Positions 7,049 to 22,162 of a stretch of DNA of 24,000 nucleotides are shown here, piece after piece. The notes under the pieces were generated by a model. That model did no database searches, was not told where the DNA came from, and saw nothing but the letters and a program-made list of their open reading frames with translations. This DNA is from Sphaerochaeta globosa str. Buddy. GTDB lineage: Bacteria; Spirochaetota; Spirochaetia; Sphaerochaetales; Sphaerochaetaceae. Each line of letters starts with the position of its first letter. Positions within the stretch are counted from its first letter, which is position 1. The stretch spans positions 230,458 through 254,457 of the forward strand of contig NC_015152.1 in assembly GCF_000190435.1 (NCBI RefSeq), read 5' to 3'. The translations under genes and the position numbers were made by a program.

Positions 7049-9058
7049 GTGTACGATGTTACGCTTTTTTCAGAAGATTTCTCTTCTTTCCCCTTGGGAG
7101 CCTTCCCCTACGACAGTGATCACTCGGCCATGGGCGAGTACCACTACTTTCCCGAAGTCGGATACAAGGGGCAGTGGCATGACCCCATTGCGAACTACAA
7201 CTACAAGGGACCGTCCTGGGTGGTTACCAACCCCCTGATGGACGGATTCCATATGATGGAGCTCTCCCGCATTCAGGAACCGGTTGAGAAGGGTACGCTT
7301 CCCACGTTGGTAGCCGGTGATGAGAAGTGGCAGGACTACCAAGTCTCATTTCGCCTGCGCCCACTTTCAAAAGAACTTTTCAGTGGAGTGTTGGTGCGCT
7401 ATCAGAGCAGCCTCAGGCACTATGGGATTTTCTTTACCCAAGAGGGTCTTGAGGTGCAGAAAATCGACCTTACCCAGCGCACAACCCTCAAGAAGGCAGC
7501 GCTGAGTTGGTCGACCCAGGAGTACCAGAATCTTACCATCACCGTACAGGGCAACATGATCACCGTCAGCCTGAATGAAAAAGAAGTGCTCAGTGTTGAG
7601 GATGACCGCTACCAAAACGGTGCCATTGCACTATGCGGGTGCATGCCCACCCAGTATGCCAAGGTCGAAGTGAAGGCTACCGGGGCTGAACAGAACAGAC
7701 TTACTGAACAGAAAGCAAAAGAGCAACAGCGCATCCAAGAGAAGCGAACTCTCTATCCTCAGCTGAAAGTCGACAGGAAGATCGACCTGCAGAACTTCGG
7801 AGCCGGCCGACAGATTCGCTTCGGCCACCTTACCGGAACAAAGGAGCTCTTCTTTGTCATGGCGCAGAACCAGAGACGGGTCTACAAGGACCGCTATCCG
7901 GTTATCAGCTGCCTGACGGCAGTAAGCATCCAAACAGGTGCCGTGTTATGGCAGCTCGGAGAGCCCAGAGAGGATGCTGATGTGGTCCAGCTTACCACCG
8001 ATCTTCCCTTCCAAGTCTATGACATCGACAACGATGGCGTTGACGAAGTCATCGCCTCGTGGGACTTCAAGCTCTTCATTCTCGATGGCAGAACCGGGGA
8101 AGTGAAGAAGCAGATGAGCACCCCGATCAACGAGGAGCCCGCCAATGATTTGTGCGGGGTGGAGTTCGGCCACCATGCCTTCGAGCGCTTGAATGTGGAT
8201 GCGATCAGGATTGTGAATGTGACGGGAAAGAGCCGGCCCTCCGACCTGCTGATCAAGGACCGCTATGCACGATTGTGGATTTACGACGATCAGTTCAACC
8301 TGGTGTGGTCGTTCACCCATAACAATACCGGGCACTTCCCTTATGCCTATGACTTCAATGGTGATGGCAAGGACGAGATTTTCAGTTGCTATAATATGAT
8401 CGACTCTGATGGCAAGCTTGCCTGGGAGCTGCCGATATCCATCGACCACACCGATGAGATTGTCATCGGTCCGATAGATCCCGAGCATGCAGACCTTATT
8501 GCCATAGTATCCGGTTGGGAGGGCTTCATGCTCCTCAAGCCCGACGGGACTATGCTGAAGCGCACGATAAACGGCCACGGACAGCGAATCAGCGTAGGCA
8601 ACTACCTACCCCACAATACAGGCCTTGAGATCCTTACCACCACCTACTGGGGCAGCCAGGGAATCCTGTATATGCACAACTGCAAGGCTGAGGAACTCTG
8701 GTCCCGGGAGCTCAGGTGTAACGGTGCTGTCATCGCCCCGGTCAACTGGGATGGGTCGGGACAGGACTTGGTGCTGCTCAGTGCAAGCACAGAGCATGGC
8801 GGCCTGATGGATGGGCAAGGGGATAGGGTAGTTGCATTCCCCGACGACGGCCATCCCGAGCTTTGCTGCGAGGTTTTGGACATTACCGGGGATGAGCGTG
8901 ATGAGATCGTAGTCTGGGACCTGAAGAGCCTTTGGGTCTATACCCAGGACGCAGAACAGCCGAAGCGGGAAAGGACCTACCTCCCGATAAAGTACCCGCA
9001 CTACAATGCTTCCAACTACCGCGGCGAGTTCTGTTTCCCCAGGTGGATTGAAAGCTGA
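7049..9058 (+). CDS. Cytoplasmic two-domain protein: N-terminal concanavalin-A/LamG-like (DUF1080-like) domain plus C-terminal FG-GAP/PL11-like beta-propeller; function unknown
   Basis: The GTG start at 7049 has AAGGAG 7 nt upstream and lies 17 nt after the oxidoreductase stop, so the two genes are probably co-transcribed. The N-terminal roughly 210 aa show the DUF1080/LamG pattern ('KWQDYQVSFRLRP...GVLVRYQ...YQNLTITVQGNMITVSLNEKEV...NGAIAL'). The C-terminal part has repeated Ca-binding-like DxDxDG loops: 'DIDNDGVDEV' (about 8021-8050), 'DFNGDGKDEI' (about 8351-8380) and 'ITGDERDEIVVWD' (about 8882-8920). There is no signal peptide. Confidence 0.7.
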   Translation: MYDVTLFSEDFSSFPLGAFPYDSDHSAMGEYHYFPEVGYKGQWHDPIANYNYKGPSWVVTNPLMDGFHMMELSRIQEPVEKGTLPTLVAGDEKWQDYQVSFRLRPLSKELFSGVLVRYQSSLRHYGIFFTQEGLEVQKIDLTQRTTLKKAALSWSTQEYQNLTITVQGNMITVSLNEKEVLSVEDDRYQNGAIALCGCMPTQYAKVEVKATGAEQNRLTEQKAKEQQRIQEKRTLYPQLKVDRKIDLQNFGAGRQIRFGHLTGTKELFFVMAQNQRRVYKDRYPVISCLTAVSIQTGAVLWQLGEPREDADVVQLTTDLPFQVYDIDNDGVDEVIASWDFKLFILDGRTGEVKKQMSTPINEEPANDLCGVEFGHHAFERLNVDAIRIVNVTGKSRPSDLLIKDRYARLWIYDDQFNLVWSFTHNNTGHFPYAYDFNGDGKDEIFSCYNMIDSDGKLAWELPISIDHTDEIVIGPIDPEHADLIAIVSGWEGFMLLKPDGTMLKRTINGHGQRISVGNYLPHNTGLEILTTTYWGSQGILYMHNCKAEELWSRELRCNGAVIAPVNWDGSGQDLVLLSASTEHGGLMDGQGDRVVAFPDDGHPELCCEVLDITGDERDEIVVWDLKSLWVYTQDAEQPKRERTYLPIKYPHYNASNYRGEFCFPRWIES

Positions 9059-9081
9059 GGCTCTTGTCATGCAGCAAATCA

Positions 9082-9133
9082 GATAAGCTGTTATCTCCTT
9101 CAAGTATGATATAATCGTACTTAGAGGAGATAA
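9082..9133 (+). promoter_or_regulatory. abiEi promoter region with three AGATAA half-sites (candidate autoregulatory operator)
   Basis: AGATAA (9082-9087) and TTATCT (9092-9097) form an inverted repeat with a 4-nt spacer. TTATCTCC (9092-9099) is also the exact reverse complement of GGAGATAA (9126-9133), which overlaps the SD. A TATAAT hexamer lies between them, in 'GTATGATATAATCG'. Confidence 0.35.
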
Positions 9134-9134
9134 A

Positions 9135-9716
9135 ATGCTTAAAACTCGTGACTATGTCATGTACGAGCTACGCTCATATGCCTCCCCAAAGTCCAAGCTT
9201 ACGCAGATGATCAAGAAAGGCGAGATCATTCAGATAGTCCGTACTGTGTATGCCGACTCGCTTTCAGACCCAAAGCTCGCAGCAGCTTCCATGATTCATA
9301 GCCCCTGCTACATCTCATTCGAGACGGCACTGGCATATCACCAGATGATACCCGAGCGCGTGTTTGAAGTAAAAAGCGCAGGGTTTCAACTGAAGAAGGA
9401 GAAGCGCTTCGATACACCCTTCGGCCGTTACAGTTTTTTGTATATTCCTGAAGCAGTGTTTCCTTGGGCTGTTGAACCAGCAATTGAGCAAGGCCATGGA
9501 TTTCGCCTCGCTACCAAGGAGAAAGCATTGCTCGACACACTCTATAAGATCAGGTCTGTTACAAGCAGGAACGCTCTACAGGCCCTGTTGTTCGATGACC
9601 TTCGATTGGAAGAAGAAACCATCATGCAAATGGATTGGCACGTCATCCAATCCTTGGTTCCCTTGTATCGCAGTACAACGCTGAAGACACTGGTTCGATG
9701 GAGGGATGCACAATGA
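9135..9716 (+). CDS. AbiEi-family type IV toxin-antitoxin antitoxin / transcriptional regulator
   Basis: The 193-aa ORF matches the AbiEi/COG5340-like pattern as I recall it: 'KKGEIIQIVRTVYAD', 'SPCYISFETALAYHQMIPERV' and 'ATKEKALLDTLY'. Its stop overlaps (ATGA) the start of an ORF with an AbiEii-type N-terminus. Confidence 0.75.
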   Translation: MLKTRDYVMYELRSYASPKSKLTQMIKKGEIIQIVRTVYADSLSDPKLAAASMIHSPCYISFETALAYHQMIPERVFEVKSAGFQLKKEKRFDTPFGRYSFLYIPEAVFPWAVEPAIEQGHGFRLATKEKALLDTLYKIRSVTSRNALQALLFDDLRLEEETIMQMDWHVIQSLVPLYRSTTLKTLVRWRDAQ

Positions 9717-9814
9717 ATGAGGAAATCCAGGAGGTTGTTCTCCAAATCCTCTCACAGACAGATTTTTTCCAACATGCAGCTTTGTATGGTGGTACAGCAC
9801 TACGAATTTTTTAG
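9713..9814 (+). pseudogene. Truncated AbiEii/DUF1814 nucleotidyltransferase toxin gene (33-codon stump)
   Basis: The ATG at 9713 overlaps the abiEi stop (ATGA). Translation gives MNEEIQEVVLQILSQTDFFQHAALYGGTALRIF* with a TAG at 9812-9814. 'LYGGTALRIF' matches the conserved 'LKGGTALRL' N-terminal motif of AbiEii toxins, which are normally 200-300 aa. The convergent esterase gene ends 2 nt later, at 9817. Confidence 0.65.
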
Positions 9815-9816
9815 CA

Positions 9817-11328
9817 TCACGCAAAAGAAATGGAAAACGGCTTGAGAGGCAAGCCTGATGCATTGAACATGGTAACTTTACCGTACGGTACACAAGCATA
9901 ATTCACCATGGTTTTGACAAACCCTTCGGCGTTCGACTGTATGCGTATCTGGTTGTCTGCAACTTCGATTGAGTGAATGATTATCGGTCTGTCCTTTTGG
10001 AGAATCTCAAAGAGGCTGTAATCTCCATCTGTGGTATACAGACCCGATCCACAGTTTTTGAAGGACAGAATACTACTATTTCCTTCCCAATGTGCCGTAC
10101 AAATCTCAGGGGATTCGCTGAGCACAGGATTGTTATAGACTTTGTCCAATGCAAGAAGGAACAGCCTGCGTGCTAGTTCTTTTTTCTCTTTCGGGTGAAT
10201 ATCATACTGCATGCCGATATCCATGCAGCTTACCATCCAACAGGCAGGGACCTGTGAGGCCACTTTTTCCTGTTGTCTTCTCACTTCAGGATACATGTCC
10301 CCGTTTGAGGTAAGCCACCTATCGTATGACGTCAACTGGACAAACAGGAAGGGAAGTTCCTCATTCCAGGCATTTCTCCACACAGCAATGAGTTTAGAAA
10401 ACAACGCTGAGTACAACGATGCATGATGATGGTCGCTTTCACCCTGATACCAGAGCACCCCTTTGATCCCATAGGGCACGATCGGCTCAAGCATGGTATG
10501 AAAGAGGGCTCCTGGGCGGTTTTTGCTCCATGGTCCCATCGGAACTATGGGATCATCCTTGCTGTCAACCATTCTCTTGAGTTGGGCTTCCCTGCTGATT
10601 CCATACATGACTTTTGCCCACTCAACCAAATGATCGGGGTCAAGTTGGAAGTTCCAGCCGTCGATACTTTTCTTGCGGATTTCCTCACGAGCGATTCCCT
10701 GTATAGCCTGGGCATAATCGTCCAGATACACATGCAACGGAGACTCACAAAGCGCTTCTTGGGGAACCCACGTAGAGGCACTTGTCCCTCCCCAATTGCA
10801 GGATACGATTCCAACGGGAACAGACAATGATTCCTGCAGCATCGTTGCATACCAAAAACCAAGGGAGGAGAACGTTTCAAGTGCCTTGTCATCGGGTTTG
10901 AACCAGTACCCGTAATCCGAGCCATACACAAGATTCGTGTGGCCTTCATAGGCTATTCTTGGGCAGGTATACATGCGTATCAGGGGATTGTTCCTCAAGG
11001 CGAATGTCTCTTCATAGTGTTTTTCAAACCGAACGAAAAACTCCATGTTCGACTGTCCCCCGACAAGCCATACATCGCCGACAAGAACATCCTCAATGGT
11101 AAGGGTGCTGTCGCCCTGAACAATTTCCAGCTTCAAGGGTCCGCCTTCTGCATGAGGCGGCAGATATCGTTTCCATTTCCCTTGTTTCGGGATGCAGGTA
11201 TAGCTACTCCCGTCAAAGGTGATCGTTATCAGTTCATCTGTCTGGCAAGTCCCAAAAACAGGAATGCTTTTGCCACGTTGAAGAACCATCCCATTGCTGA
11301 AAATCGTAGTAACAGACAGAGCGCTCAT
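9817..11328 (-). CDS. Sialate O-acetylesterase-like SGNH/DUF303 carbohydrate esterase
   Basis: This is the ORF 9817..11463 with the start trimmed to the ATG at 11328 (MSALSVTTIFSNGMVLQRGK), which has AAGGGAG upstream. It has the catalytic-Ser block 'VWLVGGQSNMEF', then 'CNWGGTSASTW' and 'VLWYQGESD', all typical of the 9-O-acetylesterase / acetylxylan esterase family. No signal peptide is evident. Confidence 0.8.
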   Translation of the reverse strand: MSALSVTTIFSNGMVLQRGKSIPVFGTCQTDELITITFDGSSYTCIPKQGKWKRYLPPHAEGGPLKLEIVQGDSTLTIEDVLVGDVWLVGGQSNMEFFVRFEKHYEETFALRNNPLIRMYTCPRIAYEGHTNLVYGSDYGYWFKPDDKALETFSSLGFWYATMLQESLSVPVGIVSCNWGGTSASTWVPQEALCESPLHVYLDDYAQAIQGIAREEIRKKSIDGWNFQLDPDHLVEWAKVMYGISREAQLKRMVDSKDDPIVPMGPWSKNRPGALFHTMLEPIVPYGIKGVLWYQGESDHHHASLYSALFSKLIAVWRNAWNEELPFLFVQLTSYDRWLTSNGDMYPEVRRQQEKVASQVPACWMVSCMDIGMQYDIHPKEKKELARRLFLLALDKVYNNPVLSESPEICTAHWEGNSSILSFKNCGSGLYTTDGDYSLFEILQKDRPIIIHSIEVADNQIRIQSNAEGFVKTMVNYACVPYGKVTMFNASGLPLKPFSISFA

Positions 11329-11721
11329 GTTTCTCCCTTGTGTACCACCGGCAGTAACGCTAGCAACGATTTTTTTGACAATAGCACAGAGAGAAAGGTT
11401 GTGGGAGCAGATACAAACGAACTTGCCCGAATTAATTGGCCGATAGCAGTTGGACATAGGCAACCGCGGCTACATGCCCCTATTGGCGCAGTTACCCCCA
11501 CAAATAGCACAAGGGAGAGATTTCTAGTCCCTCCCTTGGTCATCTGATGGTTACCAACACACCAACTGGATTTTCAGTCCTGTCTGCTTGAGGAAACGTT
11601 GGTTCCTCTTGTGTCATACTATACGCTATGATTCCCGAGCGTTCAAGTATTATTTTTACACTTGGTACTCGCTGGTATTTCATCTCTTGACCTCAAGTAG
11701 ATCTGCCTGCAGTATAGCGAT

Positions 11722-12540
11722 ATGAAGAAATGGAAGCGACCGGACAAGAAAAGTCTGAAACAGATGATCGTCCAGCGTGACAGTGCGCGCATCGTGCATT
11801 ATCTGTTGCGCTTGATCGTCATTCTCATCCTTATCGCCCAGGTGTTCAACAAGAATTACGAGAACGTGTTCTTGTGCATCCTGACGCTCATCCTCTTTTC
11901 CCTCCCTTCACTTATTGAAACCAATACCCGTATCGACATTCCCGATACGCTGGAAAACATCATTCTCTTCTTTATTTATGCTGCTGCAATCCTAGGGGAA
12001 ATGGGCTCCTATTATGTGACCTATCCCTTCTGGGATACGGTGCTGCATACAGCCAACGGCTTTCTTGCAGCAGCCATCGGCTTCTCATTGGTGGACATTC
12101 TCAATCAGAGCGAGCGCTTTTCAATCCGCCTCTCCCCACTCTTTGTTGCTATTGTAGCCTTCTGTTTCTCCATGACCATCGGGGTGGTCTGGGAGTTCTT
12201 TGAGTTTTCCATGGACATGTTCTTCGGTATGGACATGCAGAAGGATACCGTGGTAACCACCCTGCGTTCGGTCATGCTCGACCCAACCAAGAGCCAAAAG
12301 ATCGTGGTGATCAAAGGCATTGAGAACGTGATGGTCAACGGCAAGGAACTCGGGGTCGGAGGGTACTTGGACATCGGCCTTATCGACACCATGAAGGACT
12401 TGTTTGTCAACTTCATCGGAGCTCTGGTGTTTTGTGTGGCTGGTTTCTTCTATCTCAAGTACCGTTCCAAAAAAGCTTCCTTCATCAAGCGCTTCATCCC
12501 CACTTTGGTCGATAAGAAGCAGAATACAACAAACGAATAG
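11722..12540 (+). CDS. Multi-pass integral membrane protein of unknown function (possibly YjdF/DUF2238-like; family not securely recognised)
   Basis: The 272-aa ORF has at least 6 hydrophobic segments and a charged N-terminus. The 'PFWDTVLHTANGFLAAAIGF' motif is reminiscent of DUF2238-type proteins. There is no clear SD, so the start is uncertain. Confidence 0.6.
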   Translation: MKKWKRPDKKSLKQMIVQRDSARIVHYLLRLIVILILIAQVFNKNYENVFLCILTLILFSLPSLIETNTRIDIPDTLENIILFFIYAAAILGEMGSYYVTYPFWDTVLHTANGFLAAAIGFSLVDILNQSERFSIRLSPLFVAIVAFCFSMTIGVVWEFFEFSMDMFFGMDMQKDTVVTTLRSVMLDPTKSQKIVVIKGIENVMVNGKELGVGGYLDIGLIDTMKDLFVNFIGALVFCVAGFFYLKYRSKKASFIKRFIPTLVDKKQNTTNE

Positions 12541-14115: not shown

Positions 14116-15141
14116 ATGGAATCAGTCAAACTCACCCAGATGGTGAAAACCAGCGGCTGTGCGGCCAAATTGCCTCCCAAGCTGTTGCATGAAGTACTGG
14201 ACAGTATAGGCTGGATGCATAGCCCGGACCTCGTGGAAGGGTTTGAAGGAAGTGACGATGCTTGTGTGTACCGCCTGCCGATAGGCAATAACCTGGTGAT
14301 GCTGCAGACTGTCGACTTCTTTCCTCCCATGGTCGACGACCCCTACCTGTTTGGTCAGGTAGCGGCTGCAAATGCCCTCAGTGACATCTATGCCATGGGA
14401 GGAGAACCAAAGGTTGCACTGAATCTGGTTTGTTTTCCCTCCTGTTTGGACCTCTCTGTTCTTAGACAGATTCTGCTGGGCGGCCAAAGCAAGGTTACAG
14501 AGAGCGGGGCTGTTATTGCAGGCGGGCATACGATCAGCGACCCGACTCCCAAGTATGGGCTCTGTGTTACCGGCTTTGCCCCTGAAGACAGGGTCTGGGC
14601 AAACCATGGCAGTAAGCCTGGGGATGTGCTCATTCTCACCAAGTCCTTGGGTGTGGGCATTGTCAACACGGCAGTGAAGGCAGGCCTTGCAAGCAAGACA
14701 GCCCAACAGAAAGCCGTCTTAAGCATGACTACCCTGAACAAGGCTGCCTATGAGGCTGCTCGAACCAAAGACGTGCATGCTGCCACTGACATTACCGGCT
14801 TTTCTCTACTGGGCCATGCTCAGGAAATGGCAACAGCCAGTAACGTCACCCTGCTTCTCAATGCTCAGAGCATCCCTGTGATAGAGGAAGCCTTGGAGTA
14901 TGCAAGCATGGGCTTGAACCCAGAAGGGCTCTACAACAACCGAGAGTACCTGCAAGGCTCAGTCCAATTCCAAAGAACACTCGAGCAGGAACTGGAGGAC
15001 ATACTCTACGATCCCCAGACCTCCGGAGGATTGCTGTTGAGCATGAGCAAGGCCGATGGCCTGGCTTATAGCCAAGAAACAGGCTATCCGATCATAGGTG
15101 AGGTGGTAGAGAATGCAGAATCTCCGTTGTTGGTTGTGTGA
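14116..15141 (+). CDS. selD: Selenide, water dikinase (selenophosphate synthetase), Cys-type
   Basis: The 341-aa ORF has the N-terminal active-site loop 'KTSGCAAKLPPKLL', with a Cys codon TGT rather than TGA/Sec. The AIR-synthase-like fold motifs 'DDACVY', 'TVDFFPPMVDDPYLFGQVAAANALSDIYAMGG' and 'GGHTI' are present. Confidence 0.92.
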   Translation: MESVKLTQMVKTSGCAAKLPPKLLHEVLDSIGWMHSPDLVEGFEGSDDACVYRLPIGNNLVMLQTVDFFPPMVDDPYLFGQVAAANALSDIYAMGGEPKVALNLVCFPSCLDLSVLRQILLGGQSKVTESGAVIAGGHTISDPTPKYGLCVTGFAPEDRVWANHGSKPGDVLILTKSLGVGIVNTAVKAGLASKTAQQKAVLSMTTLNKAAYEAARTKDVHAATDITGFSLLGHAQEMATASNVTLLLNAQSIPVIEEALEYASMGLNPEGLYNNREYLQGSVQFQRTLEQELEDILYDPQTSGGLLLSMSKADGLAYSQETGYPIIGEVVENAESPLLVV

Positions 15142-15213
15142 TAAGTCGGGTAAGCATTGCTTCTCGGGGCAGTATATCCATAATTGCCGTGCTGGGTTTC
15201 GGACTGTAGGAAG

Positions 15214-15245
15214 AAGGGTTTCGATACGTCGAGCCCTTATTTTTT
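15214..15245 (+). terminator. Probable rho-independent terminator of the selenium operon
   Basis: The arms AAGGG (15214-15218) and CCCTT (15234-15238) enclose an inner TCGA/TCGA pairing. An A followed by a run of six T (15240-15245) comes next, about 70 nt after the selD stop. Confidence 0.45.
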
Positions 15246-15366
15246 ACTCCAGTGGTCTGTATATCTTACTTGAATTTCCTCCAGCACAAATCCCGGGGAG
15301 GTTGCGTTCTCATCGGCCTTGCTCTTTCCAGCCAATGTGCGCATAGCGGTGGAATGTAAAGATTAA

Positions 15367-15414
15367 TACCTTGCGTGTAGCGGGTTTTTGTGATAATATT
15401 ACCTTGCGTGTAGC
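15367..15414 (+). promoter_or_regulatory. Promoter/operator of the first island ATPase gene: two perfect 15-bp direct repeats flanking an extended -10
   Basis: TACCTTGCGTGTAGC occurs at 15367-15381 and again at 15400-15414, 33 bp apart. Between the copies lies TGTGATAAT (15389-15397), which is an extended -10 of the form TGnGATAAT. The ATG at 15443 follows. Confidence 0.45.
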
Positions 15415-15442
15415 ACAGGATTGAAGCCGGGGGGATGTCCTG

Positions 15443-16813
15443 ATGGAAATTAAAAGAAACACATACAACAGAATCCTTGAGTGGAAGAAGCAGGCCAATG
15501 GAACGAAAGCTCTCTTAATTGAAGGAGCAAGGAGAATTGGGAAATCTACTGTGGTAGAGGAAATAGGAAAGAATGAATATAAATCCTTCATTATGGTTGA
15601 TTTCAATAAAGCAAGCACGAAAGTCAAAGATTGTTTTAATGACTTGAATAACCTAGATCTCTTTTTTCAGACTCTTATGCTGGAATACAATCAGCGACTC
15701 TACAGAAGAGAATCCTTGATAATTTTTGATGAAATCCAAAAGTTTCCAAAGGCAAGGGAAGCCATTAAATATCTTGTTGCAGACGGAAGATATGATTACA
15801 TAGAAACTGGCTCACTGATTTCCATTAGGGAGAATGTAGAAGGGATAACCCTGCCTTCGGAAGAAAGAAAGATTACAATGCATCCTGTGGATTTTAAAGA
15901 ATTCATGATGTATATGGGTGAAGGTATTCTGCTGGAATATATTGGCGACTGCTATAGGAGAAAAGTGCCACTAGAACAGAGATTCCATAGCAAGGCAATG
16001 CATCTCTTCAAAGAGTATCTTCTTGTCGGGGGAATGCCGCAGGCTATTGTAGCTTTTGCTTCAAACGGAAGGGATTTTGAGGCTGCTGACATTGAGAAGC
16101 GGGATATCCTTTCGCTATATCGCGATGACATCAAAAAAGCGGCCAAAAAATACAGCTCACGAGTATCCGCAGTATTTGAAAACATACCAGCTTATCTTTC
16201 AACGCATGAGAAAAGGATTGTTTTGAATGAACTCGAGAAAGATGGTCGTTTTAGTATGTATGATGAGCCTCTGTTCTGGCTGGAAGACTCGATGATGTGC
16301 AATCTCTGCTACAAGTGTAATGATCCAAATGTAGGTCTGGCCCTTAACAAGAATGATTCTTATGTGAAGTGTTATATGGGTGACACCGGTTTGCTGACTT
16401 CCTTGGCATTCAGTGAAAACGAAATCGCTGACCAGCAATTATATAAAGAAATCCTGAATGATAAGCTTTCCTTGAATGAAGGGATGCTGTATGAAAATGC
16501 TATTGCGCAGATGATTACTGCCATGGGAAGGAAACTGTACTTCTACACAAGGTATAGTAATGAAAGGCATCGAAATGACATTGAAATAGATTTTTTGATT
16601 TCAAATGAACGAAAAACCAATTACAGGATTAATCCAATAGAGGTTAAATCATCGAAAAATTACACGTCTACATCTTTAGGAAGATTCAAGGAAGTGTTTG
16701 GTAGGAAGATTGAGTATCAGATGATCATTCATCCAAAAAATTTCTCGGTAGTTGATGACATCATAAGAATTCCTCCTTATATGCTATGGGCGGCCTTTGA
16801 AAACTTTTCTTGA
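15443..16813 (+). CDS. AAA+-type ATPase with C-terminal PD-(D/E)xK-like nuclease-fold domain (AAA_14/DUF4143, COG1373-like)
   Basis: The 456-aa ORF has Walker A 'GARRIGKST' and Walker B 'LIIFDEIQ'. The C-terminal 'DIEIDFLI...(14 aa)...IEVKSS' fits a D...ExK nuclease motif. The coding sequence is AT-rich, roughly 38-40% GC in the lines I sampled. Confidence 0.8.
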   Translation: MEIKRNTYNRILEWKKQANGTKALLIEGARRIGKSTVVEEIGKNEYKSFIMVDFNKASTKVKDCFNDLNNLDLFFQTLMLEYNQRLYRRESLIIFDEIQKFPKAREAIKYLVADGRYDYIETGSLISIRENVEGITLPSEERKITMHPVDFKEFMMYMGEGILLEYIGDCYRRKVPLEQRFHSKAMHLFKEYLLVGGMPQAIVAFASNGRDFEAADIEKRDILSLYRDDIKKAAKKYSSRVSAVFENIPAYLSTHEKRIVLNELEKDGRFSMYDEPLFWLEDSMMCNLCYKCNDPNVGLALNKNDSYVKCYMGDTGLLTSLAFSENEIADQQLYKEILNDKLSLNEGMLYENAIAQMITAMGRKLYFYTRYSNERHRNDIEIDFLISNERKTNYRINPIEVKSSKNYTSTSLGRFKEVFGRKIEYQMIIHPKNFSVVDDIIRIPPYMLWAAFENFS

Positions 16814-16821
16814 CAGGTACA

Positions 16822-17016
16822 AAAAGTCTCCAGTGGATTACCGCAAAAGTCTCCAGTGGATTACCGCAAAAGTCTCCAGTGGATTACCGCAAAAGTCTCC
16901 AGTGGATTACCGCAAAAGTGTCTCCAGTGGATTACCGCAAAAGTCTCCAGTGGATTACCGCAAAAGTCTCCAGTGGATTACCGCAAAAGTCTCCAGTGGA
17001 TTACCGCAAAAGTCTC
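16822..17016. repeat. Tandem array of a 23-bp direct repeat (8 full units plus a 9-bp partial unit)
   Basis: The unit is AAAAGTCTCCAGTGGATTACCGC. Units start at 16822, 16845, 16868, 16891, 16914, 16939, 16962 and 16985, with a partial unit at 17008. All are identical except the fifth, which has a 2-bp GT insertion (25 bp). Each unit contains the palindromic core TCCA-G-TGGA. The array begins 9 nt after the ATPase-1 stop and ends 8 nt before the -35 of the next gene. Confidence 0.97.
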
Positions 17017-17024
17017 TTTTTTTA

Positions 17025-17053
17025 TTGATTAAGTTTCTGTGGGATAGTATGAT
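17025..17053 (+). promoter_or_regulatory. Sigma70-type promoter of the second island ATPase gene
   Basis: TTGATT (17025-17030), a 17-nt spacer and TATGAT (17048-17053) are followed by AGGAG (17068-17072) 5 nt before the ATG at 17078. A T7 run lies immediately upstream, at 17017-17023. Confidence 0.55.
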
Positions 17054-17077
17054 GTAATAGCCAGAGCAGGAGAAAAA

Positions 17078-18343
17078 ATGAGCCAATATCTTCCTCGTGT
17101 GATTGATACATTATTAGAAGAATACTTGGAAACTTTTGGAGCTGTTTATATCCGCGGACCGAAATGGTGCGGAAAAACAACCACCGCAGAGCAGAAAGCA
17201 AAGAGTATTGTTAGATTTCAAGACCCTAAAACTGGGGCATCCAACCAGATGATGGCAGAAATTGATCCATCACTATTGCTGAAAGGAGATAACCCAAGGC
17301 TTCTCGATGAATGGCAACTTGTTCCGCAAATCTGGGATGCAGTAAGGCTGCAAGTTGATGAGTTGAAAGCTGAAGGTTTGTTTATTTTAACTGGCTCTAC
17401 AGTTCCCGTTGATGATGATCAGCGTCATTCTGGAACTGGACGAATTAGTAGGTTAACTATGAGGCCGATGAGTCTCATGGAATCTGGAGATTCTAGTGGA
17501 AAGGTTTCCTTATCTTCTTTGTTTCTTGGTAAGACGTTTGAATCGGGGATATCATCCAGCTTGACAATACCTCAATTAGCGTATGTCATGGTTCGAGGAG
17601 GGTGGCCAGCTTCTATTGGTAAATCTGAAAGAGCTGCAGGACTCATAGCACAAGAATATCTTGTTTCTTTGACGGAAAGCGATCTTTCAAAAACCACAAA
17701 GACTCAAAAAAATCCAGGCCGTGTGCATGCTCTTCTTCGGAGTTATGCACGGAACATTTCGACCCTGGCTACTAATGAGAGTATAATCAAAGATATCTCA
17801 GAAAATGATATATCATTTTCTGAATCTCTTTTTTATGAGTATCTTAATGCATTGCAAAGGCTTTATGTTATAGAGGATGTCTCTGCCTGGAATCCGGCAA
17901 TTCGTTCCAAAACTGCTATTCGGTCACGCTCGAAACGAGAGTTTGTCGACCCTTCTCTCGCTGTTGCAGCACTAGGCCTAAGTCAGGCTATGTTGCTTGA
18001 TAACCTCGAGTATATGGGTTTTGTTTTCGAGACACTCTGTATTCGGGATTTGCGGATATATTCACAACAGTTCGGAGGAACAGTCTCCTACTACCATGAC
18101 AGGTATGAACTTGAATGTGATTGTGTGCTCCATCTTAGGGATGGACGATATGCACTTATTGAATGTAAGTTGGGTGGTAGCCGGATAGACGAAGGCGCTG
18201 CCCACCTGCTTGAGCTCAACTCGCTCATTACCCAGCATGGTATGAAAAAGCCCTCCTTCCTCATGGTGCTTACAGCAACTGACATAGCCTATATCAGAAC
18301 TGACGGTATTCTCGTTGTTCCTATTGGATGTTTGGGGACTTAA
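17078..18343 (+). CDS. AAA+-type ATPase with C-terminal PD-(D/E)xK-like nuclease-fold domain (AAA_14/DUF4143, COG1373-like); divergent paralog of 15443..16813
   Basis: The 421-aa ORF has Walker A 'GPKWCGKTT' and Walker B-like 'PRLLDEWQ'. The C-terminal 'ELECDCVLHLRDGRYALIECKLGG' fits a D...ExK motif. Its last codons and stop (..GGGGACTTAA) lie inside the duplicated flank of the transglutaminase-like gene. Confidence 0.8.
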   Translation: MSQYLPRVIDTLLEEYLETFGAVYIRGPKWCGKTTTAEQKAKSIVRFQDPKTGASNQMMAEIDPSLLLKGDNPRLLDEWQLVPQIWDAVRLQVDELKAEGLFILTGSTVPVDDDQRHSGTGRISRLTMRPMSLMESGDSSGKVSLSSLFLGKTFESGISSSLTIPQLAYVMVRGGWPASIGKSERAAGLIAQEYLVSLTESDLSKTTKTQKNPGRVHALLRSYARNISTLATNESIIKDISENDISFSESLFYEYLNALQRLYVIEDVSAWNPAIRSKTAIRSRSKREFVDPSLAVAALGLSQAMLLDNLEYMGFVFETLCIRDLRIYSQQFGGTVSYYHDRYELECDCVLHLRDGRYALIECKLGGSRIDEGAAHLLELNSLITQHGMKKPSFLMVLTATDIAYIRTDGILVVPIGCLGT

Positions 18344-18570
18344 CTCTGTCTCAACTTTACTATGGATTTATTGATCGTAGGCCTCAGAATCTTCTGATAG
18401 CGTAGGCTTCGGGTTCTCTCTTGTGCTTCTGGATAGCTTGGAAGAAGGCATCCGGATCGTCATAGGTTCCCAGCGTCTCGTGCTTTGGATGAAGGTATCC
18501 CATTCCTTCCAGCGGATCGGGGGGTGAAAGGTCAAAGGTACGGGAGTGCAATGCATACCTGAAGAGGCTT
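18340..18570 (-). pseudogene. Frameshifted remnant of the 3' end (about the last 75 codons) of a transglutaminase-like gene, paralogous to 20413..21129
   Basis: The two overlapping ORFs 18368..18556 and 18384..18590 each carry pieces matching the C-terminus of the 238-aa protein: 'PPIRWKEWDTFIQS' versus 'PPIHWEEGDTFIQS', and 'TLGTYDDPDAFFQA' is identical. The tail reads RYQKILRPTINKSIVKLRQS* versus RYQKILRPALNKSITKLRQL*. Relative to the intact copy there is a 1-bp deletion at 18436/18437 and a 6-bp deletion. Confidence 0.85.
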
Positions 18571-18742
18571 GGTTGTACCTTGCTGAACAAGCTTGAGCGA
18601 GAGGTTCAGTTCAGAAATGCGAAAGAGCCTGCCTTGGCCGAAGTCCAGACACTCTCTTTCGCGTTATTGAATTTTGATTCTCACAACATCTAGTGAAATA
18701 TTCTCAAATCCACTCAGTGTTACAGTTGAGAAGATTTAAGAA

Positions 18743-18823
18743 AATTTGAGAAGAATTTATGAATATTACATAAAATTTATGAAATTGATATTAAATTTGT
18801 GATTTTACCAATTGAATTTGAGA
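18743..18823. repeat. Helically phased 9-bp motif AATTTRWGA (5 copies) in the AT-rich tract upstream of the AlbA_2-type gene
   Basis: The copies are AATTTGAGA at 18743, AATTTATGA at 18754, AATTTATGA at 18774, AATTTGTGA at 18794 and AATTTGAGA at 18815. Spacings are 11, 20, 20 and 21 bp. A TTGACT hexamer follows at 18830-18835. Confidence 0.6.
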
Positions 18824-18878
18824 TTTTGGTTGACTTACCACTCTGGGTGTGCCATGGTAGCAATAGGAGGAGATCCTT

Positions 18879-20342
18879 ATGCTGCCGTGCGAACTTGAAA
18901 CATTGGTTGATGATATCGTTCATCTGCGTTGTGAATCCCAACACATTGAATTGAAGCGTTCACAGACTGAAGCACCCAAACGCCTCTATGACACCTTGTC
19001 GAGTTTTTCCAATCAGAAAGATGGGGGCATAATCATTTTCGGCGTCTATGAACACAATAATTATTCAATAACTGGCGTTGATGACCCTCAGGCTGTCCAA
19101 CAGCAGGTAAACAACCAAGCCAAGCAGATGGTCCCGATAGTCAGACCGGTATTCACGGTGGCAGAGATTGATGGCAAGGAGGTAGTGAGCGCAGAGATTG
19201 CAGAGTGCCCCATCATGGAAAAGCCCTGCTATTATGCTGGAGCCGGACGGTTGAAAGGCTCTTATATCAGGGTTGGTGATTCAGATGAGCCCATGACTGA
19301 ATATGAAGTTTACAGCTTTGAGGCTTTTCGTCAGAACATCCAGGATGAGAAGTTCCCTGCACTGAATGCCACCATGGATGATTTGAGCAGTGATAGGCTG
19401 ACTGAGTATATGCTGAAGATCAAGAGGTTCAAGGAGAATCTCTCCCAGCTTTCGCTGGAAAAAGTGCTGCGACTTCAGGGCATCACAGTCAATGGGGTGC
19501 CCACAGTAGCCGGACTGATGCTTTTCGGAGAATATCCTCAGGCATTCTTCCCGCAGCTCAGCATAACCGCCATGGTTATCGCCGGCAATATGTATTCTGA
19601 TATTAGCCAGAATGATGAACGCTTTGTTGATAACAAGCGTATCGAGGGCACAATTATCCAGATGTATGAAAGTGCCATGAAATTTATAAGCCGCAATACC
19701 CGGCAAGCAACAATCATCAACGAGAACGGGGAGCGCAACGACAGACCGGAATATCCGCTCAAGGCAGTCCGCGAGCTGGTACTCAATGCCCTGATTCACC
19801 GTGACTATAGCATTCATACCATTAATTCGCCGATACGTATTCTGTTGTTTAACAACCGTTTGGAGATTGAGAACCCAGGAGGCCTCTATGGGCGGATTAC
19901 CATTGATGAGTTGGGAAAAATGTCTGCAGATACCCGCAATCCATTCATAGCGGGTGCACTTGAAGTTTTGGTAGAGACAGAGAATCGTTTTTCCGGCATA
20001 CCTACCATCTATGCTGAGATGGAGAAGGCTCATTTGCTTCCGCCTGTATTTGAAAGCCAGCGCGGTGTATTTAGGGCCACGCTCTACAATCAGGGTAGCT
20101 TATCGATGAATCCTGATGCTGCCAATGATAGTGAATCCTCGATCATGAAAAAGATTCTTTCATTCTGCTCAGAGCCGCGTTCAAAGGATGAAATTGCAAA
20201 GCATATCGGCCTTTCCTCTGTGTATTACATCACCGCGAGGTATCTTCATCCCTTGCTTGAAAGTGCTCAGCTGAGAATGACTCTGCCCGATAGGCCCAAG
20301 AGCAAACATCAACGTTATGTTGCAGCACAGAGCAGAATCTGA
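18879..20342 (+). CDS. AlbA_2 (Schlafen-like) DNA-binding domain plus HATPase_c_4 ATPase-like domain plus C-terminal wHTH protein (often annotated as 'RecG-like' or putative transcriptional regulator)
   Basis: The 487-aa ORF has AGGAGGAG upstream of the ATG. The N-terminal 'ESQHIELKRS...LSSFSNQKDGGIIIFGV' matches the AlbA_2 pattern. The central 'LVLNALIHRDYS...IRILLFNNRLEIENPGG' matches HATPase_c_4. The C-terminal 'ILSFCSEPRSKDEIAKHIGLS' looks like a wHTH. Confidence 0.8.
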   Translation: MLPCELETLVDDIVHLRCESQHIELKRSQTEAPKRLYDTLSSFSNQKDGGIIIFGVYEHNNYSITGVDDPQAVQQQVNNQAKQMVPIVRPVFTVAEIDGKEVVSAEIAECPIMEKPCYYAGAGRLKGSYIRVGDSDEPMTEYEVYSFEAFRQNIQDEKFPALNATMDDLSSDRLTEYMLKIKRFKENLSQLSLEKVLRLQGITVNGVPTVAGLMLFGEYPQAFFPQLSITAMVIAGNMYSDISQNDERFVDNKRIEGTIIQMYESAMKFISRNTRQATIINENGERNDRPEYPLKAVRELVLNALIHRDYSIHTINSPIRILLFNNRLEIENPGGLYGRITIDELGKMSADTRNPFIAGALEVLVETENRFSGIPTIYAEMEKAHLLPPVFESQRGVFRATLYNQGSLSMNPDAANDSESSIMKKILSFCSEPRSKDEIAKHIGLSSVYYITARYLHPLLESAQLRMTLPDRPKSKHQRYVAAQSRI

Positions 20343-20406
20343 ATTCATGATGTACAACCACTTCGTCTGTTAATACGAGCACGGATAGCGTCTTGGCCGT
20401 TCCCCT

Positions 20407-20640
20407 GGGGACTTAAAGCTGCCTTAGTTTTGTAATGGACTTGTTGAGTGCAGGCCTCAGAATCTTCTGATAGCGTAGGCTTCGGGTTCTCTCTTGTGCT
20501 TCTGGATAGGCTTGGAAGAAAGCATCCGGATCGTCATAGGTCCCCAGTGTACCTGCACGCGCCTTGCTCTGGATGAAGGTATCCCCTTCTTCCCAGTGGA
20601 TGGGAGGGTTTCGGAAGTTCAACACTGCAATCCCATAGCC
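20407..20640. repeat. Second copy of a roughly 230-bp direct repeat (first copy 18334..~18560; offset 2,073 bp) with a 58-bp identical core
   Basis: The repeat starts at the shared TGGGGACTTAA just outside the stop codon. 20452-20509 is identical to 18379-18436 (58 bp: AGGCCTCAGAATCTTCTGATAGCGTAGGCTTCGGGTTCTCTCTTGTGCTTCTGGATAG). Similarity is lower on both sides of this core and fades by about 20640/18560. Confidence 0.85.
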
Positions 20641-21129
20641 ATAGAAACTGCCCATGTAATCGGGAAACTTTGCTTGGAGCTTGAGAAGGTAGGGACGGTC
20701 GACAATGTGCCCCCCGATCTCAATCCACTTGTCGTTGTAGAAAATATTCACCCAACCATGATAAAGATTATTGGGACTGATGCGGTAGGTAAGTGATCCT
20801 AGGAGGCCTCGATGGAGGACCTTGTCCACCATGCTGGCCTTCATGCGGCAGGGAACTCCCACCGCTCTGAGGATGGTCATAAGCAGGATGGTCTTGGTAA
20901 GGCAGTTGCCCAAACCGAGCTTGAGCACTTCAGAACCGCTGATGGCAAACGCTTGGGAATAACCAAAAGGAATTCCATCTCTTACGAAGGTGTAGACAGC
21001 ATCAATCTGTGCTGTTTTTGAACTGAGATTCTTCCAGCCCTTCTGTTGTACGAGAGTCTGCAGTATCGGGCTTTCGTAGTCGAGCAGCGGTGTTGGACGA
21101 AGGTATTGGTTGTCTTCAAGCGATTCCAC
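20413..21129 (-). CDS. Transglutaminase-like (cysteine-protease fold) domain protein
   Basis: The 238-aa ORF has a GTG start at 21129 with AAGGAAG 4 nt upstream. The core Cys motif is 'GLGNCLTKTILLMTILRAVGVPCR'. 'LYHGWVNIF' and 'GGHIVD' are consistent with the Cys-His-Asp triad spacing of transglutaminase-core proteins. Confidence 0.75.
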   Translation of the reverse strand: MESLEDNQYLRPTPLLDYESPILQTLVQQKGWKNLSSKTAQIDAVYTFVRDGIPFGYSQAFAISGSEVLKLGLGNCLTKTILLMTILRAVGVPCRMKASMVDKVLHRGLLGSLTYRISPNNLYHGWVNIFYNDKWIEIGGHIVDRPYLLKLQAKFPDYMGSFYGYGIAVLNFRNPPIHWEEGDTFIQSKARAGTLGTYDDPDAFFQAYPEAQERTRSLRYQKILRPALNKSITKLRQL

Positions 21130-21277: not shown

Positions 21278-22162
21278 ATGGACAGGAAAAGTAGCCTACA
21301 AGCTCTGATGAAAGGACCGTTGGCTCCTCTCTATTTCTGCATTGGCAGTCCTGTGGTTGGCAACCCCACGCAGTATATGGTCGAAGCAGCCTTCGATGCT
21401 CTTGGCTACTGTGGCAGGTACCTGACCATCGATGTCGATGCCGAGGAGCTGGACCCAAGTATCTGGGGTCTATTGGCCATGAATTTTGCAGGAGGCAACG
21501 TTACCGCCCCCTTCAAGCAGGAGGTACTCACCTACCTCGATGAGCTTACCGAAAGTGCCAGCTTATGTGATGCGGTAAACTGCATAACCCGCAAAAGCGA
21601 TGGTACCTACATCGGGGACAACACCGACGGCAAGGGCTTTCTCCAGTCTCTGATCGCAGTGGCCCCCGATCTTAAGAAGCGCAAGGTCATGGTATTCGGC
21701 AGTGGAGGGGCTGCCTCTGCAATCGTCACCGAATTGGCTCTCTATGGAGTGCGGGAGGTAGTGGTGGTCAACCGCACCGAAGCACACGCCAAAACGCTGG
21801 TGAACAACCTGGAGGGCATTTCCAGAACCCAGCTGAAGGTCGATCGTTGGGCTGGAACTTATCAGATTGTAGAGAATGACCTGGTGGTGGTACAGGCCAC
21901 CAGTGTCGGCCTGTTCCAACCAGGTGCTTGCATTGATGTTGCCTTTGCCCCGGCACTGCAGAATGTCATTGCCTGTGATGTGGTGTTCAATCCTGTGGAA
22001 ACTGCCTTCCTGAAAAAGGCCAAGAGTGCAGGCTGCCTCACCCTCGACGGGCTTGGCATGCTGGTCAACCAAGGAGCGATTGCCATACAGCTGTGGACCG
22101 GCAAGGAACCGGACAAGGCTCTGATGCGCTCTAGCTTGGAAGAAGCATTCGCTGTATGCTGA
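21278..22162 (+). CDS. Shikimate dehydrogenase-like (AroE/YdiB-family) NAD(P)-dependent dehydrogenase, non-canonical substrate-binding motif
   Basis: The 294-aa ORF has the catalytic blocks 'GGNVTAPFKQ' (Lys) and 'GDNTDGKGF' (Asp) and the glycine-rich loop 'GSGGAASAIV'. The N-terminal motif reads 'GSPVVGNPTQYMVEAAF' where canonical AroE has GxPIxHSxSPxMHNAAF. AAGGAG lies upstream, and TTGGAC-18-TAAAAT is a possible promoter at about 21231-21260. Confidence 0.8.
   Translation: MDRKSSLQALMKGPLAPLYFCIGSPVVGNPTQYMVEAAFDALGYCGRYLTIDVDAEELDPSIWGLLAMNFAGGNVTAPFKQEVLTYLDELTESASLCDAVNCITRKSDGTYIGDNTDGKGFLQSLIAVAPDLKKRKVMVFGSGGAASAIVTELALYGVREVVVVNRTEAHAKTLVNNLEGISRTQLKVDRWAGTYQIVENDLVVVQATSVGLFQPGACIDVAFAPALQNVIACDVVFNPVETAFLKKAKSAGCLTLDGLGMLVNQGAIAIQLWTGKEPDKALMRSSLEEAFAVC

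Follow-up and report, generated by a model that had tools for sequence, protein, structure and literature searches.

The island between selD and the transglutaminase-like gene

The subject of this report is a segment of ~5.3 kb in the genome of Sphaerochaeta globosa str. Buddy that extends from the selD stop codon (15141) to the 3′ end of a transglutaminase-like gene (20413). It lies within a stretch of 24,000 nucleotides (contig NC_015152.1, positions 230,458 to 254,457), referred to here as the window, whose own numbering is used throughout. The segment is a strain-variable hotspot that holds three unrelated single-gene cassettes, whose genes we call G1, G2 and G3, and the locus is otherwise an ordinary defence-type hotspot. 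Pfam matches bear out the gene content given in a preliminary description of this DNA, namely two genes of the AAA_14 plus DUF4143 type and one combining AlbA_2, HATPase_c_4 and winged helix-turn-helix (wHTH) domains. The repeats that decorate the upstream region of each gene are present as described there, but they are no local oddity: they are a conserved, clade-specific feature of the gene families themselves. The island contains the following features, and numbers with the prefix L denote the loci with which it was compared.

15142..16821, + strand: G1 cassette (promoter/operator and gene), delimited by sliding identity and absent as a unit in L007
15336..15414, + strand: G1 operator-like region with three C(C/T)TGCG(C/T)(A/G)T cores
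15443..16813, + strand: G1, AAA_14 and DUF4143, 456 amino acids, PDC-S01 family (Pfam AAA_14 7.8e-23, DUF4143 7.5e-19)
16822..17016, + strand: direct-repeat array, 8.4 copies of the 23-bp unit CAAAAGTCTCCAGTGGATTACCG (Tandem Repeats Finder, TRF, score 372, 97% match)
17025..17053, + strand: sigma-70-like G2 promoter TTGATT-17-TATGAT (consensus match only), beginning 8 nt past the array
17078..18343, + strand: G2, AAA_14 and DUF4143, 421 amino acids, PDC-S01 family (Pfam AAA_14 9.6e-12, DUF4143 9.2e-28)
18333..18525, − strand: degraded second copy of the transglutaminase-like gene's 3′ end (pseudogene fragment), convergent with G2 and overlapping its stop codon
18610..18671, no strand assigned: imperfect hairpin (25-nt arms with 76% complementarity) that has conserved counterparts downstream of G2 in L005 and L002
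18700..18830, + strand: G3 promoter module, ATTTGAGAAGA-type motifs ~20-21 nt apart
18879..20342, + strand: G3, SLFN_AlbA_2, HATPase_c_4 and Fic-like_C wHTH, 487 amino acids (Pfam 8.6e-17, 4.6e-20 and 6.7e-09)

The earlier view that these genes belong to no recognised system does not hold for G1 and G2, both of which match the PADLOC family PDC-S01 over their full length (G1 to PDLC04786, 8.2e-98, residues 1-451; G2 to PDLC04790, 1.1e-54, residues 1-419). PDC-S01 is one of the 145 PADLOC candidates released by Payne et al. (10.1101/2024.01.29.577857); a survey of 2026 ranks it as the fourth most common defence across prokaryotes, with ~39,000 loci and validation pending, and gives its architecture as an ATPase with a fused PD-(D/E)xK domain (PMC12988326), the superfamily in which DUF4143/COG1373 had been placed in 2012 (PMC3424549). 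The genes studied here resemble the family in matching its hidden Markov models end to end, in sharing its ATPase and PD-(D/E)xK architecture and in lying within a variable island, the usual setting of defence genes. Two divergent members stand in tandem, a pairing that is not conserved, and they are so far apart in sequence that BLASTP does not pair them. Sequence searches of the PDB returned no solved relative of G1 or G2, NCBIfam holds no model for any of the three proteins and PHROGs none for G1 or G2. Beyond Sphaerochaeta, the nearest relatives of G1 are proteins of Lachnospiraceae and Tyzzerella (75-80% amino acid identity), an affinity with which its low GC content, given below, is in keeping; the best relatives of both G2 and the transglutaminase-like protein are found in Sphaerochaeta or in metagenome-assembled genomes of Spirochaetales.

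The prediction that G1 and G2 are ATPase-nuclease fusions is supported at the level of fold and motif. Sixteen G1 homologues keep G33-K34-S35-T36, D96-E97, D383 and E400-x-K402, and 47 sequences at 54-90% identity to G2 keep Walker A (G27...K33-T34), Walker B (D77-E78) and the nuclease-motif residues E318, D348 and E362-x-K364. The AlphaFold2 model of G2, built with 47 homologues (pLDDT, the score of the predicted local distance difference test, 90.4; predicted template modelling score 0.91), comprises an AAA+ core, a helical lid, a winged helix (residues ~233-288, helix-helix-hairpin) and a C-terminal alpha-beta-beta-beta-alpha-beta domain, which retains a pLDDT of 86.8 when modelled in isolation. 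In these models the conserved motif residues occupy the places expected in a PD-(D/E)xK core, where strand 2 bears the D and strand 3 the (D/E)xK: E318 lies on a helix (310-332), D348 on the strand 346-352 and E362-x-K364 on the strand 358-364, followed by a helix (368-386) and a further strand (395-399). The best fold matches of this domain are PD-(D/E)xK nucleases, namely Card1/Can2/Cdn1 and type II restriction endonucleases, with which it shares the arrangement E...D...ExK, although even the closest of them are weak (E 0.01-0.03, TMq 0.38-0.52); unlike Card1, Can2 and Cdn1, G2 has no CARF sensor, and its regulatory part would be the AAA+ ATPase.

For the whole G2 model, Foldseek places the archaeal AAA+ ATPases SSO1545 and PABY2304 (PDB 2fna and 2qen) first, followed by ORC/Cdc6 proteins and the CARF-nucleases Cdn1 and Card1. 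The matches to SSO1545, PABY2304 and ORC-type proteins have E values of 1.6e-07 to 5e-05 with modest TM-scores of 0.2-0.4 (7jk6_A, 8s0e_A and 2qby_B: E 1e-05 to 5e-05, prob 0.98-0.99), and the model shares with them the AAA+ core, the lid and the C-terminal winged helix, as expected of an ORC/Cdc6-like protein. The G2 coding sequence also contains a perfect palindrome of 13+13 nt, TCAGAAAATGATA/TATCATTTTCTGA (17798-17823), with a terminator-like score on both strands.

G3 is of another kind. It is 100% identical to the NCBI entry 'ATP-binding protein [Sphaerochaeta globosa]' (P0241), its homologues number in the thousands, and its architecture is that of the COG2865-type AlbA_2 and HATPase_c_4 proteins annotated as 'putative transcriptional regulator / RecG-like', whose PDB representatives 2kyy and 3lmm are functionally uncharacterised structural-genomics entries. 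It matches PHROG 12156 (4.4e-55), labelled 'DNA helicase', and in PADLOC it finds weak matches only, to pAgo- and Aga-fused domains, and no stand-alone system. What distinguishes G3 from other COG2865-type proteins is its setting here as a third independent cassette with phased ATTTGAG motifs of its own, spaced at 20-21 bp.

Phased repeats upstream of the three genes

The most conspicuous repeat, described earlier as a 23-bp unit present eight times, stands ahead of G2, and its eight unit matches compare with 0 expected by chance. Equivalent arrays accompany G2 homologues elsewhere. In L014, a 3.1-Mb contig and an unrelated locus, a homologue of 73% identity, labelled 'uncultured Sphaerochaeta sp.' by its source, follows 13.8 copies of a 23-bp unit that agrees with the window unit at 19/23 positions (own count), and in L015, from another taxon, a homologue of 58% identity follows 3.5 copies of a 23-bp unit whose sequence is unrelated. 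Scanning viral contigs (IMG/VR) yielded 33 further G2-clade loci at 42-54% identity, and TRF detected period-23 arrays in 15 of these, ending 50-80 nt ahead of the start codon. A more sensitive autocorrelation test, which takes the best of 33 lags (8-40) upstream of the gene at non-redundant loci, returned lag 23 as the best in 25 of 26 G2-clade loci (binomial P ~3e-37), and lag 23 was never best in control regions within genes. The five plasmid loci, from Bacteroides uniformis, B. ovatus, Collinsella aerofaciens (two) and Prosthecochloris aestuarii, all gave the same best lag, which brings the total to 30 of 31 non-redundant loci and extends the pattern to homologues with as little as 33% protein identity. 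Homologues of G2 include WP_032845912 from B. ovatus, WP_040360137 from C. aerofaciens ATCC 25986 and WP_012509575 from P. aestuarii. The loci span at least five phyla, comprising Spirochaetota, Bacteroidota, Actinomycetota, Chlorobiota and whatever taxa the IMG/VR contigs represent; beyond the loci scanned for arrays, there are homologues whose sources are named as Clostridia, Anaerolineae, Bacilli and Proteobacteria.

Within this constant period the unit sequences vary among loci, many of them looking bipartite (e.g., GCCAAACTGCCGAA, GCCAAATTTCCAAA, CAAAAGTCTCCAG). In 17 of 26 loci the coding strand shows CAAA recurring in 23-nt phase, whereas no locus (0/26) shows its reverse complement phased in this way. 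The arrays stop ~3-10 nt ahead of a −35-like hexamer, and the promoter layout of the window has its equivalent in L005, L014 and many IMG/VR loci. The usual state in the G2 clade is two to five diverged units, so that the near-perfect arrays of 8.4, 13.8 and 7.7 copies represent expansions; copy number is 1 in L007, at least 5.5 in L005, 6.4 in L006, 8.4 in the window and 13.8 in L014. On this comparison the array of the window can be read as an expanded form of a 23-bp-period operator array typical of the G2 clade. Our searches of the literature on DUF4143, COG1373 and AAA_14 in connection with direct repeats or promoters found no description of such arrays, nor did the searchable literature yield anything on the regulation of PDC-S01, and the phased 23-bp and 34-bp promoter repeats are absent from the description of the family.

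Several other readings of the array were considered and set aside. The 86-amino-acid open reading frame (ORF) that passes through it (16797-17057) is an artefact of repeat translation, its DUF1382 match being below threshold. The units follow one another directly, their period being the unit length itself (23 bp), and neither cas genes nor an Rfam match accompany them, unlike a CRISPR array. An iteron-type origin does not fit an AAA+/wHTH/nuclease protein without the Rep fold or loci embedded in multi-megabase contigs. An integron was likewise rejected, and a structured RNA was dropped because an Rfam scan of 14900-20600 at permissive thresholds gave no RNA family.

Some G2-clade loci carry additional features. 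In L044 a second repeat of period 22/23 (L044:1693-1748) lies directly downstream of a G2-clade gene that has 6.6 copies of a 23-bp unit upstream, and it is the only other period-23 match among the TRF-scanned loci. The Collinsella aerofaciens plasmids carry a small Xre-type helix-turn-helix gene directly upstream of the array and the G2-clade gene (L074:2124-2312; L075:2135-2356), which could be an additional regulator in that lineage. Adjoining the array and G2 homologue of L014 is a divergently oriented gene for an ATPase_2 plus DUF234 protein, from another AAA+ family with an uncharacterised C-terminal domain (L014:6096-7493, − strand), so that related ATPase families are paired a second time, here at a different locus.

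G1 has a repeat system of its own. The direct repeats noticed earlier in its upstream region are there as an 18-nt sequence, TAATACCTTGCGTGTAGC, at 15364 and 15397, with a third, degenerate copy at ~15336, and the cores of the operator-like region begin at 15338, 15372 and 15405, with spacings of 34 and 33 nt. A putative promoter, its hexamers read by eye, lies between and over these cores (−35 TTGCGT, 15371-15376; −10 TAATAT, 15394-15399). Three (A/T)C(C/T)TGCG(C/T)A(T/C) motifs 34 nt apart recur in 5/5 distinct G1-clade loci (window/L006, L054, L056, L063 and L067/L071) at about −95, −61 and −27 from the start codon (−105, −71 and −38 in the window), the first overlapping a −35-like hexamer and the second following the −10. 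Among 76 loci scanned, this three-motif pattern is exclusive to the upstream regions of the G1 clade. At L014:15277-15394, four copies of TAC(T/A)(C/T)TGCGTATTGT, 34 bp apart, precede an operon of AbiEi-like (weak Pfam match) and AbiEii genes, and their core and period are those of the G1-clade motif; a kinship of the AbiEi-like protein with G1 as the cause of the common motif was rejected, the two having no sequence similarity.

The phased 9-bp motif reported ahead of G3 likewise stands, with TTGAGAAGA-type copies at 18726-18802 and periods of 10, 20 and 21. In the window, L006, L059 and L061 the gene is preceded by ATTTGAG(AAGA) motifs phased at ~20-21 nt, and the whole module is conserved at a second genomic location in L059 (a 4.3-Mb contig), where it stands before a G3 homologue of 85% identity. 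The module also occurs without G3 in L002, L005 and L007, and in L002 it is expanded to 7.6 copies of 20 bp. The unit TTGAGAAGATTCAAGGCAAT lies beside the 3′ end of the transglutaminase-like gene, without G3 at that place, at L002:1986-2136, L005:1776-1829 and L006:7830-7908; the 7.6 units of 20 bp in L002 are perfect, and in L006 the module is present twice, before G3 and beside the transglutaminase-like gene.

Haplotypes and cassette turnover at the hotspot

The flanks of the island, listed below, are conserved, and the transglutaminase-like gene is syntenic with the aroE-like ORF in L002, L005, L006 and L007.

14116..15141, + strand: selD, selenide, water dikinase-like, conserved left flank (Pfam AIRS, AIRS_C)
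20413..21129, − strand: transglutaminase-like gene, conserved right flank (Pfam Transglut_core)
21278-22162: aroE-like ORF beyond the transglutaminase-like gene, named from sequence alone

The DNA on both sides is ordinary sugar-metabolism and housekeeping sequence. On the left, genes for a GH3 glycosidase, a solute-binding protein, an AraC regulator, a GFO/IDH oxidoreductase, a SASA esterase and a sulfur-transport protein lead up to selD, and on the right the transglutaminase-like gene is followed by aroE and a NusG-like gene. The island is compositionally foreign and variable, as proposed earlier. Its GC content is 0.433 (15142-20412) vs 0.524 in the left and 0.518 in the right flank, so that the AT shift is real, although the earlier estimate of 38% against 62% overstated its size, since selD itself has 0.533. 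Per gene, G1 stands at 0.381, G2 at 0.431 and G3 at 0.471, and GC at third codon positions at 0.405, 0.355 and 0.523, respectively, vs 0.594 in selD and 0.624 in aroE. GC is also lowered, though less so, at 9000-12500 (0.44-0.50), where a SASA-type esterase is encoded (9817-11463, − strand) along with two ORFs that match nothing in Pfam (9135-9716 and 11722-12540).

The key comparison loci at the hotspot were supplied by a metagenome scan anchored on aroE. An exact-protein look-up with selD gave no match, and one with the transglutaminase-like gene gave one 1.7-kb contig of the same arrangement; scanning contigs with the transglutaminase-like protein gave a single close relative on a 2.4-kb contig, informative on the 20-bp array. 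L007, a near-conspecific metagenome contig whose selD and transglutaminase-like gene are 95.6% and 96.7% identical to the window in DNA, is an empty site, the two genes lying 490 bp apart, as the earlier suggestion to compare these flanks had anticipated. In L006, of which the flanks are merely 78-82% identical to the window (selD 81.9%, transglutaminase-like gene 77.5%), the order is selD, G1, G2x, a 6.4-copy 23-bp array, G3 and the transglutaminase-like gene; G2x, with 43% amino acid identity to G2, has a different upstream region of its own, and the G2-type array is orphaned there. L005 and L002 show the order 23-bp array, G2, hairpin (better formed than in the window), 20-bp array, transglutaminase-like gene and aroE, and have no G3. 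The short contigs L009 and L011 carry a window-type selD and G1 (99.8-99.9% identical) and, beyond position 16821, the G2x-type upstream region instead of the array. At least three haplotypes are thus found among sequences whose flanks or G1 are 96-99.9% identical to those of the window.

Divergence differs from one part of the island to the next. G1 differs from its L006 copy at 8/1371 nt (99.4% DNA identity), vs differences at 18% of positions in selD and 22% in the transglutaminase-like gene, and by sliding identity the high-identity tract runs from ~15142 to exactly 16821, where it ends sharply; G3 is ~86% identical to its L006 counterpart, and G2 84% to that of L005. A near-identical G1 tract ending at one base in lineages with diverged flanks indicates a recent horizontal exchange of the 1.7-kb G1 cassette. 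The G1 junctions show neither terminal inverted repeats nor target-site duplications, and no copies of a core site flank them.

The 490-bp spacer of L007 is a mosaic of the intergenic modules of the island. It begins, 3 nt after the end of the selD ORF, with the 20-mer that ends the G1 cassette in the window (16802-16821), continues with the G2x-type upstream region, a single 23-bp unit and the TTGAGAAGA module, and closes with the final ~33 nt of a G2 gene joined to an intact transglutaminase-like gene. The 20-mer, AACTTTTCTTGACAGGTACA, is found at 16802-16821 in the window, at L007:2666-2685 and at L006:4215-4234, with either the end of G1 or the selD stop on its left and either the 23-bp array or the G2x upstream region on its right, and by these junctions it marks an apparent recurrent recombination breakpoint. 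It occurs once and not on both sides of the G1 cassette, and a classical attachment-site (att) model for this cassette was rejected. The last ~30 nt of selD, encoding its C-terminal residues, differ strongly between the island haplotypes (window and L006) and the empty L007 (window 15100-15141, L007:2626-2667), which suggests that the G1 cassette, when it moves, takes along a selD 3′ end of its own.

A further relic lies between G2 and G3. The 193-nt copy at 18333-18525 covers the last ~65 codons of the transglutaminase-like gene and is 84-93% identical (~87%) to 20406-20609, with frameshifting indels of 1 and 10 nt. A duplication at these positions had been proposed earlier and is present, but its supposed att nature falls away, the copy being a decayed gene fragment unaccompanied by an integrase. 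Because L007 has an intact transglutaminase-like gene joined to a 3′ remnant of G2, the fragment appears to be the relic of an older, convergent G2/transglutaminase junction, which may have been displaced when the G3 segment came in together with a replacement 3′ end. It is best read as a scar of recombination-mediated cassette turnover and not as half of an att pair, because no recombinase is present and the copies are ~87% identical and frameshifted. More generally, the cassettes may be gained, swapped and lost through recombination in selD, in the transglutaminase-like gene and in the repeated intergenic modules, a turnover that would have left this fragment and the other relics behind.

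Repeats as proposed autoregulatory operators, and the alternatives

The reading that we favour, with a probability of roughly 60%, is that the three genes are independent cassettes whose family-specific phased repeats serve as autoregulatory operators, that the long G2 array arose by slippage and that a role in defence is probable. Across loci, replicons and phyla the repeats accompany the genes, and although their sequence drifts, the period, the strand and the distance to the promoter are kept. We propose the gene product itself as the binder because it is the only factor common to all hosts and contains a winged helix within an ORC/Cdc6-like AAA+ architecture. Each cassette brings its own promoter, decorated with same-strand phased repeats that would act as operators, and protomers of the encoded protein would bind these head-to-tail through the wHTH and an AAA+ surface, like ORC/Cdc6 or DnaA-type proteins, providing ATP-dependent cooperative autoregulation of a potentially toxic nuclease. 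For G1, sites over the −35, the +1 and the leader would point to repression, and for G2 an array just upstream of the −35 may act in repression or in activation. The 8.4-copy array would be a recent slipped-strand expansion of an operator of two to five units; such expansion explains both the perfect multi-copy arrays and the variable copy number.

Two known arrangements invite comparison. Origin-recognition-box arrays are bound by Orc1/Cdc6-type proteins as polar monomers, and the asymmetric 23-bp sites beside the G2 gene resemble them; unlike Orc1/Cdc6, G2 adds a C-terminal PD-(D/E)xK nuclease, and its arrays lie against a promoter, with nothing to indicate a replication origin. Plasmid iterons are Rep-binding direct repeats ~22 bp apart, upstream of rep, and their array is autoregulatory. 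The G2 arrays are similar to them in consisting of tandem direct repeats at about two helical turns, variable in copy number and placed directly before the gene of the presumed binder; they differ in that the protein is an AAA+ nuclease and no Rep-fold initiator, that the genes are chromosomal and single, amid housekeeping genes, and that neither DnaA boxes nor an AT-rich unwinding element were identified. The chances are slightly better than even that one protomer occupies each asymmetric unit and that AAA+ contacts between neighbours make autoregulation cooperative and nucleotide-dependent.

As to function, G1 and G2 most likely act in defence against, or conflict with, mobile DNA, presumably by ATP-gated DNA cleavage. 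Drawn only from PDC-S01 membership, the behaviour of the island and the nuclease fold, a defence or conflict role has in our estimate even odds, and a defence or selfish role is plausible.

Several observations weigh against the preferred reading. Arrays are kept, and even expanded, where no gene follows (6.4 units in L006, 7.6 copies of 20 bp in L002), and therefore slippage alone can maintain them and the protein may not be needed. The CTTTGCGTAT motif in 34-bp phase also precedes the unrelated AbiEi-like/AbiEii operon of L014, which suggests a host factor or regulator shared between different defence genes, or a mobile promoter module, and which, for the G1-type motif at least, speaks in favour of a shared host factor. 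Loci drawn from IMG/VR are phylogenetically non-independent, PDC-S01 is a bioinformatic candidate only, and the best matches of the G2 C-terminal domain (Card1, Can2, EcoT38I, EndoMS, Nt.BspD6I) are weak (E 0.01-0.3).

The alternative that survives best, though we consider it unlikely, is that the cassettes are selfish elements in which the ATPase-nuclease aids its own spread or retention, in a homing- or addiction-like manner, the arrays then being recognition sites and not operators. The near-identity of G1 at the same insertion point, despite a flank divergence of ~20%, would fit such elements, as would gene-sized presence/absence differences that leave the intergenic modules in place, the fact that homologues are found inserted singly amid housekeeping genes, on plasmids and in IMG/VR contigs, and the second 23-bp-period array just downstream of the gene in L044. 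Same-site transfer is explained equally well by homologous recombination through selD and the shared 20-mer, however, the bare G1 junctions show none of the terminal structures described above, and one-sided arrays of fixed orientation that abut a −35 box have the geometry of regulatory sites.

It is rather improbable that the arrays are simply unstable minisatellites (variable-number tandem repeats or contingency loci), whose copy number would tune or phase-vary the promoter with no dedicated binder. Near-perfect units (97-100% match), a copy number ranging from 1 to 13.8 among relatives and the persistence of orphan arrays all agree with this idea; slippage nevertheless leaves unexplained why the same 23-bp period recurs with unrelated units across at least five phyla, why the typical state is two to five diverged units that keep a CAAA-containing core on one strand, and why the distance to the −35 box is fixed.

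The proposal in the preliminary description that G1, G2 and G3 form one module, cooperating as a three-gene defence system, fares poorly. The three genes do lie close together on one strand, and the related lineage L006 has members of all three families in matching order; yet the middle gene there is the 43%-identical one with its own upstream region and an orphaned G2-type array beside it, and other relatives carry partial sets (L005 and L002 have no G3, L009 and L011 pair G1 with G2x, and L007 has none of the three). Away from the hotspot each family is solitary and in unrelated contexts: G2 homologues stand alone in L014 and L015-L020, amid sugar-metabolism or housekeeping genes, and on plasmids (L072-L076) with unrelated neighbours; the G3 homologue of L059 lies between EF-G paralogues and unrelated genes; and the G1 homologues of L063 and L067 have neither G2 nor G3 near them, their neighbours being a GIY-YIG protein, a Fic/RhuM protein and a DDE-transposase-like protein. 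Each gene has a separate promoter module, and the genes differ in their divergence histories (against L006, G1 99.4% and G3 ~86% in DNA; against L005, G2 84%). Conserved co-occurrence of the three is not seen in the loci examined, and because of the solitary homologues and the varying haplotypes an obligate three-gene system can be taken as ruled out on comparative grounds; cooperation of the three in any such system is very improbable. Least credible of all is that the right part of the island (18.3-20.6 kb) is an integrated element targeting the 3′ end of the transglutaminase-like gene with the 193-nt duplication as attL/attR, for, although the G3 segment is bracketed by direct repeats from a gene 3′ end as in target-restoring islands, there is no integrase-like or recombinase ORF in the window and no repeat at the G1 junctions, the two copies are ~87% identical only, with frameshifts in one, and not near-identical cores, the L007 junction identifies the fragment as marking an older junction displaced by recombination import, and G3 occurs with the same promoter module and without such a repeat in L059.

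Returning to autoregulation by the encoded proteins, a bolder version of it would make the 23-bp arrays and the G1-clade 34-bp triplets assembly platforms. PDC-S01 proteins would be sequence-specific AAA+ nucleases of an ORC/DnaA-like kind that polymerise head-to-tail on a cognate array accompanying the gene, the array both setting expression and parking an inactive nuclease filament until it is released or redirected by an infection cue. We offer this tentatively, as a conjecture that has the odds against it; if true, it would amount to a new mechanistic class, an array-nucleated AAA+ nuclease, in very abundant candidate immune genes of bacteria and archaea.

What is new here is a conserved, clade-specific promoter architecture of phased repeats. 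G1 and G2 themselves are new members of a catalogued candidate family, and the third gene forms an unrelated cassette. PDC-S01-type genes behave as autonomous single-gene cassettes that are exchanged horizontally. For a family of this abundance the repeats provide a handle, in that DNA-binding specificity may be readable from them and autoregulation is testable by reporters, and cultured carriers exist in Bacteroides ovatus, B. uniformis, Collinsella aerofaciens ATCC 25986 and Prosthecochloris aestuarii DSM 271.

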